IMG/VR virus record: IMGVR_UViG_2724679538_000003
Length of the DNA: 25,866 nt
Reading direction: 5' to 3' (one strand)
Source: a virus
Taxonomy: Duplodnaviria; Heunggongvirae; Uroviricota; Caudoviricetes
Shown piece after piece: positions 1-7,211 of the stretch (position 1 is the stretch's first letter; the number at the start of each line of letters is the position of its first letter). Made by a program: the position numbers and the translations under genes. A model generated the notes under the pieces. That model saw only the letters and a list, made by a program, of their open reading frames with translations, did not search any database and was not told the DNA's origin.

Positions 1-685
1 TTTGCGCTCCAGAAAAGAGTGACGCCCGCGAGTGTGCAGCTCCGGGCGCCGTGGCGTTTTGTGTCTGTGGAGAAACTAACGCATGAACAGTTTAACGGCA
101 AATAACCGTTTGTCGCAACAGCTGGTGATCAGCGTGGCTGAACACCTGTTGTTACGGCATGAATGCAGATTATCAAATCACCTGGCTGTAAGTAACCACA
201 GAGAACTTTACCTGACTGTGGGGGGCGAGTTGTGCAGGAACTTAACCGCTGGTTTCGTGACGGAAGAGGGCTTTATGTCCATGTTATTCGTTGGGAGCCA
301 GAAACACAGCGCGTTATCTATCTTCGCAAAGACTACCCGCATGAGTGCTTTAGTCCTTTGTGGAAATTCAGGCGTGATTTTGTTGAGTGCGAAGAAACAC
401 CAGCACATTGATTCTGTCATTCCGGGACGTTACACTGTTCAGGCACCTTATAAAGCGGGTGCCGGGATTGGCGTCCTGGAATTGCATACGGCGACAATTG
501 GCGCGTTAGCGTCTTTTTTGTTGCTACAACTCAGCTATACCCAAATTATGGTGGGCTGGGTGGGGGCACCGAAAGGTGCGCCGGTTTCCGTATGCGCCGG
601 TTACGCCAACCCTGCTCAGTTCACCACCAGCGAAATTGGCGTTTCCGGTGGTGGAAGTTATCCATTGCATACGGAGGCTGCCATC

Positions 686-1231
686 ATGGCTACTGTCCCA
701 GCCCTCACTCGTCCCGAAATTACCATTGCTAACGGTCAGGCCGTTACTTCCTCGTTGGCCATTGCTGACTACTTCTCCAAGCGTCACGATGATGTTCTGA
801 AAAGAGTACGTGCGCTGGAATGTTCACCGGAATTTAACGCCCGCAATTTTGCGGCGGTCGAATACGTTGATGCGAAAGGTGAGCTCCGTCCTGCTTACCA
901 AATCACCCGCGACGGCTTTGCGTTTCTTGCTATGGGTTTCACGGGTAAACGTGCTGCCCAGTTCAAAGAGGCATATATCAATGCCTTTAACCAGATGGAG
1001 AAACAGCTTTCAAAGCCCTCTGTACCGAGCGACGTTGCACATAACGCCAGCGTTCTCTGTTCCTACATTTCATCAATTCATCATGTCTGGCTGCAGCAGC
1101 TTTATCCTATGTTGGCAAAAGCCGAATCTCCGCTGGCTGTTAGCTTATATGACTATATTAATGATGCTTCGGCGCTGGCCTGCCTCATAAATTTGTCGCT
1201 GAACCCTTCAGAGGTAAGGGGGCGCAAATGA
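686..1231 (+). CDS. Phage regulatory protein Rha family (about 181 aa)
   Basis: ATG at 686 preceded by GGAGG (674-678); N-terminal region (TSSLAIADYFSKRHDDVLKRVRALE...FNARNFAAVEYVDAKGELRPAYQITRDGFAFL) has the character of the Rha domain as I recall it. The track ORF 83..1231 extends upstream in frame, but that extension has no SD and looks non-protein-like. Confidence 0.75.
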   Translation: MATVPALTRPEITIANGQAVTSSLAIADYFSKRHDDVLKRVRALECSPEFNARNFAAVEYVDAKGELRPAYQITRDGFAFLAMGFTGKRAAQFKEAYINAFNQMEKQLSKPSVPSDVAHNASVLCSYISSIHHVWLQQLYPMLAKAESPLAVSLYDYINDASALACLINLSLNPSEVRGRK

Positions 1232-1452
1232 TCCGGAATATTTTCAAACGGTTTACCAATCAGACTTTCCGTTGTCCTCGTCCGGGTCAGTGGTACACCA
1301 CGCCTGCAGGGCATGTTCTACGTGTTAGCCTGGTTGACCGTGAATGTCAGAAAGTGATTTGTGAACCGCTGGGCCGTAATTACCGCGTCAGTATGCCGCT
1401 TATAGCCTTTCGCTCTGGAAAAAACATGAAGCATCTCGGAGGTGCAGCATGA
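1228..1452 (+). CDS. Hypothetical small basic protein (74 aa), translationally coupled
   Basis: ATGA overlap with the Rha stop (1228-1231) and again with the start of the next gene (1449-1452); an operon-internal position typical of real small phage genes. No recognisable family. Confidence 0.5.
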   Translation: MIRNIFKRFTNQTFRCPRPGQWYTTPAGHVLRVSLVDRECQKVICEPLGRNYRVSMPLIAFRSGKNMKHLGGAA

Positions 1453-2279
1453 GTATGGAGCTGATGGTTAAAGCGATGAAAATTCGAGTGGGTAATCCAT
1501 TGCGAAAACTGGTTCTGATCAAGCTGGCTGATAACGCCAGCGATCAGGGTGAGTGCTGGCCCAGCTACCAGCATATTGCTGACCAGTGCGAGATTAGCAA
1601 ACGTTCTGTGATGAATCATATTGCGGCTCTTTGTGATTCCGGACTGGTAAAAAAAGTCATCCGGAAAGGTGAAAAAGGTAACTCAAGTAATATCTATCTC
1701 CTTCATCTTGATGGTGCAGGAGATTCACTAGGGGGTAGTGCAAATAATTCACTATCTGGTGCAGCAAATTCACCAGGTAGTGCAGGAGTTGCACCAGGGG
1801 GTGGTGCAGGAGATTCACCCAGAACCAGTCACTCTTTTGAACCAGTCAAAGAACCAGTCAAAGAACCAGTCAATGAACCAATAGCTGTTGGTGCATCTGC
1901 TGATGAGTCTGTGCGAGTTCGTTCAAACCGACCGGAATACTCTCCGGAGTTTGAGCTGGCATGGCTGGCATACCCCAAACGTGCTGGTGGCAATTCAAAA
2001 TCTGCAGCCTTCAAAGCCTGGAAAGCCCGTTTGAATGAGGGGGTAAAACCCGAAACTATGCTGGAAGGTGTGAAACGCTACGCGGGCTGGGTATCTGCGA
2101 TGGGTAACAGCGGCACACAATTTGTTAAACAGGCTGTCACGTTCTTTGGTCCGGATCGTCATTTCGAAGAATCCTGGGAAGTTCCTGCGGTATCGGCAGC
2201 CAGATGCGAAGACCCGTGCTTCAAAGCCAGTTACAACAATGTGGACTACAGCCAGATCCCGGCAGGGTTCAGGGGGTGA
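1449..2279 (+). CDS. Replication initiator, lambda O-like (N-terminal HTH domain, repeat-encoded linker, C-terminal domain)
   Basis: GGAGG at 1438-1442, ATG at 1449. N-terminus (RKLVLIKLADNASDQGECWPSYQHIADQCEISKRSVMNHIAALCDSGLV) is wHTH-like. The central low-complexity linker is encoded by iteron-like DNA repeats, the same layout as lambda O/ori. Confidence 0.75.
   Translation: MSMELMVKAMKIRVGNPLRKLVLIKLADNASDQGECWPSYQHIADQCEISKRSVMNHIAALCDSGLVKKVIRKGEKGNSSNIYLLHLDGAGDSLGGSANNSLSGAANSPGSAGVAPGGGAGDSPRTSHSFEPVKEPVKEPVNEPIAVGASADESVRVRSNRPEYSPEFELAWLAYPKRAGGNSKSAAFKAWKARLNEGVKPETMLEGVKRYAGWVSAMGNSGTQFVKQAVTFFGPDRHFEESWEVPAVSAARCEDPCFKASYNNVDYSQIPAGFRG
1713..1818. repeat. Putative replication origin iterons: five 16-bp imperfect palindromes (gGTGCAnnAnnTtCAC) at 21-24 bp spacing
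   Basis: Copies start at about 1713, 1737, 1758, 1779 and 1803; the first and last are identical (ggtgcaggagattcac). Each has internal dyad symmetry (GTGCA...TtCAC). They lie inside the initiator gene, as lambda ori lies inside O. Confidence 0.65.
1822..1880. repeat. 12-bp tandem repeat (gaaccagtcaaa, about 3.5 copies plus one degenerate copy) encoding an (EPVK)n linker
   Basis: Direct tandem copies at 1839-1850, 1851-1862 and 1863-1874, partial at 1875-1880, with a diverged copy at 1822-1833. They translate to EPVKEPVKEPVNEP in the initiator frame. Confidence 0.8.
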
Positions 2280-2281
2280 TC

Positions 2282-2761
2282 ATGAGCCTGATGAGTGAGA
2301 TTCAAAAATTCATTGAAAGCAATCCTGGATGTACGACCGGTGATATTGCGAATGCGTTTGCATACTTTCCACGTCCCCGTGTACTGAATACGACCAGTAA
2401 GTTACGCCAGTGCAGACGTGTCGCTTATCGCAGTGAAGGCAAAACACACAGGCATTTTTCTCGCAAGGCTGTGTTGCCACCTGAGCCGGTGCTGAAGCAT
2501 ATGAGTGTGGCCAGTAAAAGCTACGTCGGCACTAATGATCAGCGGGTGATTTTGCGCCTGATTCAGCAGGCAGAAGATCTGGAGTCCAGAGGTTTATTCC
2601 GTCGTGCTGCAACGGTGTGGATGGAGGCATTCCGTGAAAGCCACTCCCAGTCAGAACGAAACAATTTTCTGGCGCGTCGTGAGCAGTGTTTACGGAAAAG
2701 CAGCAAGCGCGCTGTATCGGGTGATGAGTGGTATCTGTCAGGGAATTACGTGGGGGGTTAA
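2282..2761 (+). CDS. PerC-like transcriptional regulator (159 aa; C-terminal PerC-like motif)
   Basis: AGGGGG SD at 2271-2276, ATG at 2282. Motif LESRGLFRRAATVWMEAF matches the PerC/Pch family signature (LE..G..RRAA..W) as I recall it. The longer track ORF 2204.. has no SD. Confidence 0.6.
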   Translation: MSLMSEIQKFIESNPGCTTGDIANAFAYFPRPRVLNTTSKLRQCRRVAYRSEGKTHRHFSRKAVLPPEPVLKHMSVASKSYVGTNDQRVILRLIQQAEDLESRGLFRRAATVWMEAFRESHSQSERNNFLARREQCLRKSSKRAVSGDEWYLSGNYVGG

Positions 2762-3087
2762 TGACGACGTTAACTCAATGCCAGCAGCAGGTGCTGGATA
2801 TGCTGATTTCTTATCAGAAAGAACGTGGTTTCCCGCCAACCAATCAGGAGGTGGCAGCCATGCTGGGATACCGTTCGGTGAATGCAGCGGTGGAGCATCT
2901 TCGCGCACTGGAGAAAAAAGGCGTCATCACGATAAAGCGTGGCGTGGCCCGGGGGATAACGCTTCATACCGTAGTGAAGGACGACGACAGCGAGGTGGTC
3001 GGGATTATCCGCGCACTGCTTGCCGGTGAGGAAAACGCCAGGCTGCGTGCAACTCACTGGTTACATGAGAGGGGCTTGAAAGTATGA
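2761..3087 (+). CDS. LexA-like N-terminal DNA-binding-domain protein lacking the S24 peptidase domain (108 aa)
   Basis: TAATG overlap with the upstream stop. Residues 1-69 (MTTLTQCQQQVLDMLISYQKERGFPPTNQEVAAMLGYRSVNAAVEHLRALEKKGVITIKRGVARGITL) align position by position with the E. coli LexA N-terminal wHTH as recalled; the C-terminal 40 aa show no protease motifs. Confidence 0.75.
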   Translation: MTTLTQCQQQVLDMLISYQKERGFPPTNQEVAAMLGYRSVNAAVEHLRALEKKGVITIKRGVARGITLHTVVKDDDSEVVGIIRALLAGEENARLRATHWLHERGLKV

Positions 3088-3473
3088 AGCTTATCCTGCC
3101 TTTCCCGCCCAGCGTGAACACGTACTGGCGACACCCTAACAAAGGGGCGTTTGCAGGTAAGAGCCTGATAAGCGCGGCGGGGCGAAAATTCCAGAGCGCG
3201 GCGTGCGCTGCAATAGTTGAGCAGTTACGACGTCTGCCGAAACCAACGTCGGCACCTGCTTCAGTGGAGATCGTGTTGTTTCCTCCTGATAACCGGATCC
3301 GCGATCTGGACAACTATAACAAGGCGCTGTTTGACGCCCTGACCCACGCGGGGGTGTGGAAAGACGACAGCCAGGTGAAAAGAATGCTGGTGGAGTGGGG
3401 ATCGGTTATCCCGGAAGGGAAGGTCGAGATCACTATCTGTAAGTACGAGAAAACGGCGGGTGCAGCTGCCTGA
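3084..3473 (+). CDS. rusA: Holliday junction resolvase RusA
   Basis: ATGA overlap with the upstream gene; 129 aa; sequence (MKLILPFPPSVNTYW...DLDNYNKALFDALTHAGVWKDDSQV) is typical of RusA. Confidence 0.85.
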   Translation: MKLILPFPPSVNTYWRHPNKGAFAGKSLISAAGRKFQSAACAAIVEQLRRLPKPTSAPASVEIVLFPPDNRIRDLDNYNKALFDALTHAGVWKDDSQVKRMLVEWGSVIPEGKVEITICKYEKTAGAAA

Positions 3474-3492
3474 TCAAGAGGAGAAACGAAGT

Positions 3493-4302
3493 ATGAATAA
3501 TCTGATGGTCATTGATGGTATTGAAGTTCGTCGTGATGCTTATGGGCGTTACAGCCTGAACGATCTGCATCGCGCAGCAGTAGCATCTGGTGCAAATGCC
3601 AGAACCAAGGAGCCAGGAAAGTTTCTTTCCAGCCAACAAACTGTTGAGCTTGTTCATGAATTAACCAACACCCAGAATTTGGGTGTTGACCCGGTGAGTG
3701 TGATTCATGGGGGAAATGAACGCGGAACGTATGTCTGTAAGGAACTGGTGTATGCCTATGCAATGTGGATCAGCCCGTCATTCCATCTGAAGGTGATCCG
3801 TACTTTCGACATGGTAACCAGCGCACCGGAAAAATTATCCGGACAGGCTGCTGACAAGATGCAGGCTGGTGTGATTCTGCTGGACTTTATGCGCCGGGAA
3901 TTAAACCTGTCTAACTCTTCAGTGCTTGGTGCCTGTCAGAAACTCCAGGAGGCTGTTGGCTTACCGAATCTGGCACCGCGCTATGCCATTGATGCTCCTG
4001 CTGACGCGCCTGATGGCTCAAGCCGCCCCACGCTGTCACTGAGTGCACTGCTGAAGCAGTATGGTATCCGCCTGACGGCTAATCAGGCATATCACCAGAT
4101 GGTGAAGCTGGGGATCGTTGAACAACGCGAACGATACAGCCGTACCGCGATTAACAACATCAAAAAATTCTGGTCGCTGACGGCGAAAGGCTGCATGTTC
4201 GGCAAGAACATCACCAGTCCTGCAAATCCGCGCGAGACGCAGCCGCATTTCTTCGAATCCCGATTCCCTGAGCTGTTAAAGCTGCTCGATACCGTTCATT
4301 GA
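3493..4302 (+). CDS. KilA-N domain protein (antirepressor-like)
   Basis: AAGAGGAG SD then ATG at 3493. N-terminus (MNNLMVIDGIEVRRDAYGRYSLNDLHRAA...ELVYAYAMWISPSFHLKV) is KilA-N-like; the C-terminal half is unassigned. Confidence 0.75.
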   Translation: MNNLMVIDGIEVRRDAYGRYSLNDLHRAAVASGANARTKEPGKFLSSQQTVELVHELTNTQNLGVDPVSVIHGGNERGTYVCKELVYAYAMWISPSFHLKVIRTFDMVTSAPEKLSGQAADKMQAGVILLDFMRRELNLSNSSVLGACQKLQEAVGLPNLAPRYAIDAPADAPDGSSRPTLSLSALLKQYGIRLTANQAYHQMVKLGIVEQRERYSRTAINNIKKFWSLTAKGCMFGKNITSPANPRETQPHFFESRFPELLKLLDTVH

Positions 4303-6480: not shown

Positions 6481-6693
6481 TCATGAAAGGTAAACATTGG
6501 CAGCTGAAGGGCCACGCAGACCATTTATCCGGCAAAATTCCACGCGTAATCCGGTGGTAATTTCTTCTGCATCGCGGAGATTGAGCGCTGAAACATGAAG
6601 CTGGACATCGATACGACCATCGGATGGGGTGATAAGACCCTTGCCGCTTTTGCCGTCAAAGGTTTTGACAATTCCTGTCATTTTACGGGACAA
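6481..6693 (-). CDS. cspF: Cold-shock protein family, CspF-like
   Basis: 70 aa, [26 protein letters not shown]...[13 protein letters not shown]; matches the Qin CspF pattern as recalled. Confidence 0.85.
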
Positions 6694-6995: not shown

Positions 6996-7211
6996 ATGTC
7001 AAATAAAATGACTGGTTTAGTAAAATGGTTTAACGCTGATAAAGGTTTTGGCTTTATTTCTCCTGTTGATGGTAGTAAAGATGTGTTTGTGCATTTTTCT
7101 GCGATTCAGAATGATAATTTTCGAACCTTATTTGAAGGTCAAAAGGTTACCTTCTCTGTAGAGAGTGGTGCTAAAGGTCCTGCAGCAGCAAATGTCATAA
7201 TTACTGATTAA
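6996..7211 (+). CDS. cspB: Cold-shock protein, CspB-like
   Basis: 71 aa, [38 protein letters not shown]...; canonical CspA-family RNP motifs; about 290-bp upstream leader typical of csp genes. Confidence 0.9.

Follow-up and report, generated by a model that had tools for sequence, protein, structure and literature searches.

We analysed a stretch of tailed-phage DNA of 25,866 nucleotides (IMG/VR record IMGVR_UViG_2724679538_000003; the whole stretch is called the window here), in which a gene for a replication initiator, rep, carries two sets of short repeats. The window holds the early-right and late regions of a lambdoid Escherichia coli prophage and is 97-98% identical over 25 kb to prophages of strains such as S88. 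Its features are collected in Table 1. The stop codon of the gene upstream of rep, orf38, overlaps the rep start codon (ATGA). The same initiator module is also present in SfV, mEp460, cdtI, Ayreon, several Shiga toxin 2 (Stx2) phages and the PhiR phages; SfV orf39 is annotated as "replication protein", and the DNA of the rep region is 92% identical to SfV, mEp460 and Stx2a_WGPS2. The last of these is the reference phage for the Eru6 replication region, in which cI/cro are followed by a Rha (Ash/Rha) gene and then by an HTH_36 protein (Fagerlund et al. 2022, PMC8951638). The window shows this Eru6 order, with Ash+Rha at 83-1231 and HTH_36 at 1449-2279, together with similarity to Stx2a_WGPS2; in the comparison with that reference, AP012537.1 covers 95% of window positions 1-4300 at 92% identity.

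The original prediction for this locus had placed five iteron-like imperfect palindromes at 1713-1818 and a 12-bp tandem array at 1822-1880 inside a lambda O-like gene, where they would encode a flexible linker and act as an origin in the manner of lambda ori. The five palindromes are indeed present, as exact dyad-symmetric matches to GTGCA-N5-TKCAC that span 1714-1818 with start-to-start spacings of 24, 21, 21 and 24 bp, and the dyad arms of iteron 4 are perfect. The exact pattern has no further match in the 25.9-kb window; when up to one mismatch was allowed, 14 matches were found against 4.5 expected, and none of 100 shuffles reached 14. The array has the expected 12-bp period and four exact GAACCAGTCA cores, but it is not one continuous array: a separate copy (1822) precedes a tandem run, for which Tandem Repeats Finder gave a 12-bp period and 3.5 copies at 1839-1880. 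These are the only four positions in the window that match the core exactly, and up to one mismatch gives 10 matches against 1.4 expected. All repeats fall within the open reading frame (ORF) 1449-2279. They encode residues ~89-144 of the protein, a peptide rich in Gly, Ser, Ala and Pro, and the linker spanning residues 91-162 is disordered in AlphaFold2 (AF2) models (predicted local distance difference test score, pLDDT, <50), which agrees with the linker role proposed earlier. The locus therefore has what characterizes an iteron-type internal origin, namely at least four dyad-symmetric direct repeats at about two helical turns inside the ORF of the initiator.

Table 1. Features of the rep locus and its surroundings (window coordinates; aa, amino acids).
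Feature	Coordinates	Strand	Remarks
Replication initiator gene (rep), 276 aa	1449..2279	+	Type of SfV orf39 / mEp460 gp43 / 'Eru6' helix-turn-helix (HTH) protein
N-terminal winged-helix domain, aa 1-88	1449..1712	+	HTH_36; AF2 pLDDT 74-92; predicted fold H-H-H-H-E-E
Least stable 40-bp duplex of the first 6 kb	1673..1712	.	Abuts iteron 1; nearest-neighbour free energy -45.1 vs mean -56.1 (standard deviation 3.5)
Iteron 1	1714..1728	.	GTGCAGGAGATTCAC
Iteron 2	1738..1752	.	GTGCAAATAATTCAC
Iteron 3	1759..1773	.	GTGCAGCAAATTCAC
Iteron 4	1780..1794	.	GTGCAGGAGTTGCAC; dyad arms perfect
Iteron 5	1804..1818	.	GTGCAGGAGATTCAC
GAACCAGTCA core array	1822..1880	.	Exact cores at 1822, 1839, 1851, 1863; A+C-rich top strand
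Helical C-domain, aa 164-244	1938..2180	+	No Pfam/NCBIfam model match
Chi site inside rep	1983..1990	+	GCTGGTGG
C-terminal tail	2241..2276	+	VDYSQIPAGFRG-COOH; last 9 residues match the E. coli DnaT C-terminus at 8/9
orf38-like gene, 74 aa	1228..1452	+	PHROG 1153, family without known function; candidate accessory factor
CII-like gene, 3' end	1-82		
Ash/Rha regulator	83-1231		
PerC-like gene	2282-2761		
LexA DNA-binding domain gene	2761-3087		
RusA	3084-3473		
KilA-N, DUF968/HNH, Q	Downstream of RusA		

Repeats of this kind could be slippage-prone, low-complexity coding sequence for the linker, with the origin elsewhere, or the prophage could be replication-defective and dependent on a helper. 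The composition of the encoded peptide would suit such an explanation, as would the behaviour of the repeats among close homologues (P0001-P0043). These range from 242 to 302 aa and differ in length solely by the number of iteron-encoded units, from ~1 (P0043) and 2 (P0030, found on at least 64 contigs) up to ~9 (P0001); 12-mer copies vary from 2 to 5, the window having one extra copy. However, the DNA of the repeats is conserved to an extent that the protein is not. We aligned the window with Klebsiella/Raoultella, Kosakonia and Phytobacter orthologues (four lineages, 67-74% protein identity). Columns were invariant at 48 of 50 positions of the iteron arms and 27 of 30 of the 12-mer cores, compared with 52% of the iteron centres, 56% of the inter-iteron spacers and 44-46% of flanking coding DNA. 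Third-codon positions were invariant in the arms (19/19), in the cores (10/11) and, for the most part, in centres and spacers pooled (13/15), while the folded domains kept only 15-18% of them (16/88 in the N-domain and 13/84 in the C-domain). For arms plus cores against folded domains the counts are 29/30 and 29/172 (Fisher p = 8e-18). Since the amino acids encoded by the repeats vary (P/S, K/I/N) although the DNA is fixed, the constraint acts on DNA.

Moreover, the iterons change in concert with the part of the protein that would read them. The recognition helix SKRSVMNH and the wing KGNSSN are the presumed iteron readers of the window protein, and orthologues fall into three specificity types, each represented by at least three loci. 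Type A (the window, SfV, L005, L093 and L094) combines helix S[KR]RSV[MI][NS]H and wing KGNSSN with GTGCA-N5-TKCAC; type B (L003, L097 and L098) combines SKSAVR[AE]H and GKGNxSN with CTRTGCC..GCAYA; and type C (L004, L096 and L101) combines [SG]RSTVKSH and GELNQSN with GGGGCAGGAGCTGMCC. The first 48 residues are near-identical across the types, and helix, wing and iterons change together. A Paraburkholderia relative (L103) goes further and has a Phage_rep_O N-domain joined to the same C-domain, with lambda-like palindromic iterons TGTCCCAAAACGGGACA at the same position. Where N-domain and iterons have been swapped (L003, L004), the GAACCAGTCA array is kept with the C-terminal module, so that the recombination joint falls between iterons and array. 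Judged by these comparisons, the N-domain and iterons form an exchangeable specificity cassette, which is the lambda pattern, and the repeats are supported as cis-acting DNA and not merely as linker coding. Frozen synonymous sites, dyad symmetry with helical-turn spacing and co-variation with the DNA-binding domain all speak against the linker-only explanation, and the same module is the sole replication gene in Ayreon, LLS and PhiR55_1 (recorded hosts E. coli K12 or E. coli C), SfV and mEp460; we regard that explanation, with its helper-dependent variant, as extremely improbable. The invariance of 29 of 30 third-codon positions and the co-variation in three types instead favour the origin proposed initially, and we are highly confident that the repeats in 1449-2279 constitute a replication origin.

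The segment that would open at this origin has two candidates. On the right side of the iterons, the 12-mer array (57% A+T; AT skew +0.41, GC skew -0.31) occupies the position of the A+T-rich region of lambda ori and is a candidate unwinding or single-stranded DNA (ssDNA)-binding element. On the left side, the weak duplex that abuts iteron 1 is a candidate unwinding element. DnaA-dependent loading in the style of pSC101 or RK2 was considered and rejected, as no DnaA box was seen closer than ~1.4 kb to the iterons and the window as a whole has about as many boxes as chance would give. No integration host factor (IHF) site was found near the origin.

The initiator protein (Rep) matched Pfam HTH_36 (E = 2.8e-11) and PHROG 270, 'replication initiation protein' (E = 8e-85), and gave no Pfam match to Phage_rep_O (PF04492). 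The earlier description of the gene as O-like thus holds for its organization but not for its family. The N-domain also resembles DnaD_N weakly (24 bits, under the cut-off). The original prediction had suggested that the C-terminal part might recruit host DnaC/DnaB directly; structure prediction for this part gives a helical C-domain with no Pfam or NCBIfam match, and a candidate relationship to the lambda O C-terminus was rejected (hhalign probability 0.7%). The AF2 model of the C-domain was taken from a 94-sequence alignment, as a 15-sequence alignment gave a pLDDT of only ~60. Its consensus, FExAW..YPKRxGGNxK..A.KAW.AR...G.....ML.GV.RYA......G..GT.FVKQA.TFFGP..HF.E.W., defines here a large helical family of ~4,000 clusters at 50% identity (4262 at E <1e-3; 2,060 at E <1e-10) that has no Pfam/NCBIfam model. 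Members nearly always carry the domain at the C-terminus of proteins of 250-330 aa, behind N-terminal partners that include HTH_36, DUF1376, Phage_rep_O and others. The family is without a solved structure, and the predicted fold is similar to phage 'DnaD' and 'replisome organizer' models in BFVD. Window Rep itself departs from its relatives in places: positions 2196-2240 (aa 250-264), just before the tail motif, encode ARCEDPCFKASYNN in place of ARREDPYFKASYDN in the consensus of ~80 relatives, and elsewhere FELAW replaces FEQAW and GVKPE replaces GVNPE. These deviations may reflect drift in a resident prophage.

Another feature of the locus is what it does not encode. It had been predicted that no P/DnaC-like or DnaB-like gene follows the initiator, and the next genes are indeed PerC-like and LexA-domain genes. 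Tblastn searches found no DnaC-like, DnaB-like or lambda P gene in the window, and no helicase, loader or lambda P gene lies downstream of the initiator at any of 84 loci whose C-domain is at least 94% identical (80 IMG/VR contigs, SfV, mEp460 and two metagenome contigs); the Salmonella orthologue is likewise solo. Nor does a P gene appear to lie upstream, beyond the edge of the window: the upstream genes in SfV, mEp460 and the S88 prophage are cI, cro, CII-like (Phage_CP76) and Ash/Rha, and no helicase, loader or primase is annotated in complete SfV (37 kb), Ayreon (44.7 kb; recorded host E. coli K12) or the S88 prophage (97.6% identical). Unannotated ORFs examined with Pfam were CII-like, DUF2303, DUF551 and CHAT proteins. 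The possibility that large ORFs left without annotation in Ayreon and the S88 prophage hide a helicase was rejected; one has a CHAT domain and the other gave no match. The window thus carries a solo module in the terms of Zheng et al. 2025, and not an initiator-loader-helicase (ILH) module.

Orthologues in other Enterobacterales are organized differently. At 15 orthologous loci, from Klebsiella, Raoultella, Citrobacter, Kosakonia, Phytobacter, Superficieibacter, Enterobacter, Pantoea and Erwinia, the initiator is directly followed by a DnaC-like and then a DnaB-like gene. The loader, an ATPase of the IstB/DnaC type, shares 32% identity with E. coli DnaC, and the DnaB-type helicase shares 36% with E. 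coli DnaB. The solo state therefore looks like a derived one, reached through loss of the loader and helicase genes. With these genes lost in the SfV/mEp460/Eru6/window lineage, host DnaB and DnaC must therefore serve, and we consider their use likely. In Duganella, a DnaC-like gene is the sole partner of the same C-domain. Two Paraburkholderia loci (L102, L104) have the same C-domain family followed by a 595-aa Toprim + AAA_25 primase-helicase, and the tail differs again there.

Alternatively, a phage protein that is not homologous to known loaders could act as loader or adaptor. The obvious candidate is the orf38 product (1228-1452), with Ash/Rha, KilA-N and DUF968-HNH as others. The orf38 gene is translationally coupled to rep, has no family annotation, and is found in every window-type solo locus (E. 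coli, Shigella and Salmonella) while being absent from the loader/helicase-carrying orthologues; replacement of a loader by a non-homologous viral one is reported from Vibrionaceae (PMC11087808). However, orf38 is missing from the solo locus L003, which has the same C-domain and tail, and the solo clusters L121, L176, L186 and LLS have unrelated neighbours. A reading of the 74-aa sequence, without a motif scan, brought no ATPase motif to light. Some loci lack PerC, some Dam and some the LexA-domain gene. We hold a dedicated phage adaptor to be quite improbable. The idea that orf38 is a homologue of the small ORF upstream of the Klebsiella-orthologue rep was dropped, since the two share no similarity.

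What Rep has at its extreme C-terminus is a peptide known from the host. The protein ends in SQIPAGFRG, where E. coli DnaT ends in SQIPPGFRG. Over a longer stretch the termini read ...VNTVSEPDSQIPPGFRG in DnaT and ...NNVDYSQIPAGFRG in the window protein, with VDYSQ in place of PDSQ, that is, one extra residue. Rep thus has the DnaT C-terminal peptide (...PDxxIPPGFRG-COOH) and does not have the DnaT N-terminal trimerisation/PriB-binding domain. Solo proteins end in ...EDPYFKASYDNVDYSQIPAGFRG, whereas the helicase-carrying orthologues end in ...SGFSEQDYGxxDCNW or similar, and the last ~30 residues are the most diverged part between the two groups (15% invariant positions). LLS gp44, another solo initiator that is only 25% identical and has another C-domain, ends in ...VDTKIPEGFRG. 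We also considered whether the solo tail could be what remains of a lost DnaC or DnaB gene, and rejected this because no such similarity was found; a weak in-frame alignment to the tail of the loader/helicase-carrying Erwinia orthologue was obtained instead.

We scanned IMG/VR with a DNA pattern for PDxxIPxGFRG-stop and obtained at least 120 loci; the counts for tail-bearing initiators given here and below are among the matches listed. All of these matches form the in-frame C-terminus of a putative initiator, of 260-400 aa unless cut by a contig end. Tail-bearing initiators have at least five C-domain types: that of the window, a true DnaT C-terminal domain (L149, L176, L239), a lambda-O-like domain (L137, L144), a type with DUF1376-like N-termini as judged by sequence reading (L123, L177) and the LLS type (L186). 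For 104 of the listed loci the sequence continues for at least 2.5 kb downstream. At 68 of these a DnaC paralogue comes next, starting 3 or 7 bp past the stop codon, and no recognisable loader follows at the other 36; a DnaB-like, Toprim-helicase or lambda P gene is next in none of the 104. The DnaC paralogue tested (L117) shares 49% identity with E. coli DnaC across the full length. Clustering the initiators at 70% identity gave 19 clusters, of which 12 are always followed by DnaC, 3 are always solo, 3 are mixed and 1 is undetermined; given the mixed clusters, the phage DnaC paralogue is therefore repeatedly dispensable.

By contrast, the GFRG tail is found at 0 of 15 orthologous loci with their own helicase and at 0 of 3 with a Toprim helicase. 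The family with both N- and C-domain of the window type takes three states: loader plus helicase genes with a tail other than GFRG, a DnaC paralogue alone with GFRG (L142), and the solo form with GFRG. Given this distribution over three states, the tail would seem to track dependence on host DnaB, with the DnaC-type loader coming from phage or host. Direct use of host DnaB/DnaC, as first suggested from the gene order, is in keeping with the loader/helicase-carrying orthologues, with the DnaT terminal peptide and with the restriction of the tail to initiators that appear to depend on host DnaB.

Two groups of tail-bearing loci deserve mention in their own right. Initiators with a lambda-O-like C-domain (L137, L144) end in ...PDTEIPPGFRG and precede a DnaC paralogue, whereas lambda O (L009) ends in ...DWIYGVDL and precedes P; the terminal peptide appears to have been swapped along with the loader type. 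L149 and its relatives have a DnaT C-terminal domain and the tail, with a DnaC paralogue directly after, which mirrors E. coli dnaT-dnaC (L108) and suggests, by this likeness of arrangement, that the dnaT-dnaC operon is a domesticated initiator-plus-loader module. Full-length DnaT (179 aa) and a DnaT chain of 154 aa are present in the recent PDB entries 9zbt and 9zbu; the state of residues 155-179 there would bear directly on the proposed role of the tail. A text search found no replication paper on the PGFRG motif.

DnaT is regarded as the factor that delivers DnaB-DnaC to the PriA-PriB-DnaT preprimosome; dnaT lies directly upstream of dnaC, and no DnaT-DnaC contact is documented (PMC5778457). 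We also weighed a reading in which the host helicase is loaded indirectly. Here the initiator would only melt or mark the origin, or recombination intermediates would be used, and the PriA-PriB-DnaT primosome would load DnaB at a bubble, R-loop or D-loop, with the tail docking onto PriA or PriB. The tail is, after all, shared with a primosome component, and RusA is encoded nearby. The window also has 11 Chi sites (GCTGGTGG), at 624(-), 1983, 3386, 4535, 4806, 4935(-), 9475, 12668, 13197, 13665 and 16703. Nine are on the + strand, shuffles lead one to expect 1.25, and none of 100 shuffles reached 11. Relatives have no recombination genes in their early-left operon by annotation, and the prophage agrees with the class of 'no Rec module, high Chi' phages in Zheng et al. 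2025, to which the solo phage LLS, which grows better with RecBCD, belongs (PMC12315714). However, Zheng et al. ascribe the RecBCD effect to concatemers for packaging and not to initiation (PMC12315714). Conserved iterons that co-vary with the DNA-binding domain point to a dedicated origin, and a DnaC paralogue 3-7 bp downstream of 68 of 104 tail-bearing initiators points to a loader-helicase complex as the partner. In addition, the DnaT-PriA contact described in the preprimosome is made by the folded DnaT C-terminal domain. Indirect loading is, in our judgement, rather unlikely.

We favour a different scheme, in which the N-terminal winged helices would bind the five iterons about two helical turns apart and build a nucleoprotein complex. 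An adjacent segment, either the GAACCAGTCA array at 1822-1880 or the weak duplex at 1673-1712, would then open. The disordered linker would tether the helical C-domain and the C-terminal tail over the opened DNA, and the tail, ...SQIPAGFRG-COOH, would capture host DnaB-DnaC as DnaT may do, through one or the other subunit. The initiator would in this way be an origin-tethered DnaT mimic. Taken as a whole, the reading we think probable is that of a lambda-style theta origin of the iteron type, placed within the gene for its own initiator, which in turn recruits host DnaB-DnaC through a DnaT-like tail. For the tail in particular, comparison of termini makes a contact to host DnaB-DnaC about an even call. 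More tentatively still, PDxxIPxGFRG-COOH might be the handle of DnaT on DnaB-DnaC, used by phage initiators with at least five C-domains; dnaT-dnaC might then be a domesticated module whose initiator lost its origin-binding domain, with solo phages as origin-tethered DnaT mimics. If so, solo phages could dispense with a loader of their own since host DnaC fits the same handle.

Several points weigh against this scheme. The tail alone is common to Rep and DnaT: the C-domain core is not detectably DnaT- or lambda O-like by hhalign, and a candidate homology to the DnaT core was rejected (probability 1.5%). The tails were sampled through the tail pattern itself and come predominantly from enterobacterial prophages related to one another, and the distribution of the tail fits contact with DnaB and contact with DnaC alike. 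Window Rep has three substitutions immediately ahead of the motif (R to C, Y to C and D to N), in a copy that sits in a resident prophage. The origin lacks a strongly A+T-rich unwinding element, the 12-mer array being only 57% A+T, and the sequence of 1673-1712 is not conserved in orthologues and lies on the other side of the iterons from that array. Nuclear magnetic resonance (NMR) work on DnaT has reportedly implicated the flexible C-terminus in ssDNA binding. A 2026 preprimosome paper favours the DnaT N-terminal domain for DnaB-DnaC recruitment, by a mechanism it calls unknown (PMC13377028), and Fagerlund et al. 2022 state that there is "no knowledge" on Eru phage replication proteins (PMC8951638).

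The flexible DnaT C-terminus, which is said to aid ssDNA binding, leads to another possibility, that the tail handles DNA, by binding ssDNA or by capping filaments, and that the helicase is recruited elsewhere, for example by the C-domain core. The conserved 12-nt periodic array beside the iterons could serve as an ssDNA-binding track, and the DnaT C-terminal domain forms filaments on ssDNA (PMC5778457, PMC13377028). Yet a generic ssDNA role would not predict the absence of the tail beside phage DnaB-like (0/15) or Toprim (0/3) helicases. The tail is present on at least five unrelated C-domain types among the matches listed, and the motif is neither basic nor aromatic-rich like typical ssDNA-binding tails. 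We consider a DNA-handling tail improbable and retain the capture of host DnaB-DnaC as the preferred function.

The question extends beyond one prophage. Roughly one in ten lambdoid phages of enterobacteria, Shiga-toxin and serotype-converting phages among them, has an initiator gene alone, and replication sets the dosage of the toxin gene in Stx phages. On the host side, the recruitment of DnaB-DnaC by DnaT has been called unknown from the 1980s to 2026 (PMC13377028). Our analysis nominates one peptide of 9-12 residues for both problems: it is found on DnaT and on every sampled class of initiator that appears to depend on host DnaB, and is absent where the initiator brings its own helicase. 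The DnaT-type terminal peptide is thus a concrete lead for replication of solo phages and for helicase recruitment by DnaT, and the specificity types supply three natural pairs of iterons and winged helices.

Farther from rep, the stretch between Q and the lysis genes contains CspF/CspH-like and CspB/CspG-like cold-shock genes, at 6481-6693(-), at 6996-7211(+) and beyond, which is also the case in the Qin prophage; annotations of the S88 relative also include cspI, ymcF, ynfN and gnsB. A consensus scan of positions 1-3500 found no internal sigma-70 promoter.

Among known systems, lambda O and ori-lambda are close in design. There too the origin lies inside the initiator gene, 4-5 dyad-symmetric iterons at ~20-24 bp encode a flexible linker between a winged helix and a C-terminal recruitment domain, a distinct element follows just downstream of the iterons, and the N-domain and iterons form an exchangeable cassette. 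Unlike lambda O, the window protein has an HTH_36 and not a Phage_rep_O N-domain, an unrelated C-domain (hhalign) and a DnaT-like tail in place of ...DWIYGVDL, and the window has neither a P gene nor the strongly A+T-rich segment of lambda ori. Relatives that do have a lambda-O-like C-domain with a GFRG tail precede DnaC paralogues and not P. We accordingly do not place Rep in the lambda O family: Phage_rep_O is missing, the C-domain probability is that given above, and no lambda P homologue was found in the window or at the 84 loci. The locus represents a variant of the lambda-type internal origin that has been recorded before but not explained.

Initiator-only modules as such have been published before (Zheng 2025, PMC12315714; Fagerlund 2022, PMC8951638). 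Zheng, Casjens, Davidson, Amundsen and Smith (Genome Res 2025, PMC12315714) found an O homologue alone in 34 of 314 lambdoid phages, and they describe the LLS replication module as "only one gene" whose replication is "not yet understood". The LLS gp44 and Eru6 modules resemble that of the window in having a single O-analogue and no helicase or loader. They come partly from the same phages, with mEp460 relatives among the closest matches, and the window is likewise Chi-rich with relatives that have no Rec module. LLS gp44 differs from window Rep in its low identity (25%) and its C-domain, though it has the same IPxGFRG end. The internal iterons, the loader/helicase-carrying orthologues and the DnaT-type tail have no description in the searchable literature text, which is a limited body.

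The Klebsiella, Citrobacter and Erwinia orthologues, which precede DnaC-like and DnaB-like genes, resemble initiator/loader/helicase modules with a 'replisome organizer' or DnaD-like initiator, such as G38P-G39P-G40P of the B. subtilis phage SPP1. SPP1 oriL also lies inside gene 38. The classification of such modules into initiator, loader and helicase, with the term 'replisome organizer', is that of Weigel and Seitz 2006, as cited in PMC9144972.

E. coli DnaT (PDB 2ru8, 4ou6) is alike at the extreme C-terminus, with 8 of 9 residues identical (SQIP[P/A]GFRG-COOH), and the dnaT-dnaC pair is matched by phage initiators (L149, L239) that consist of a DnaT C-terminal domain and tail followed by a DnaC paralogue. 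DnaT differs at its N-terminus, a trimerisation and PriB-binding domain in place of the winged helix of the window protein; it has no iterons and is targeted by PriA-PriB. DopC is a further relevant system: it has an HTH_36 N-domain fused to a DnaT C-terminal motif, and its origin is traced to an O-like gene of a phage (Brezellec et al. 2017, PMC5509034). However, DopC is a domesticated chromosomal gene with a lambda-P-like partner, DopE, and no iterons found, whereas the window has iterons and no partner gene. The domain link between DnaT and phage initiators is therefore already known from DopC, while the terminal peptide and its association with the type of loader have, as far as searched, not been described.

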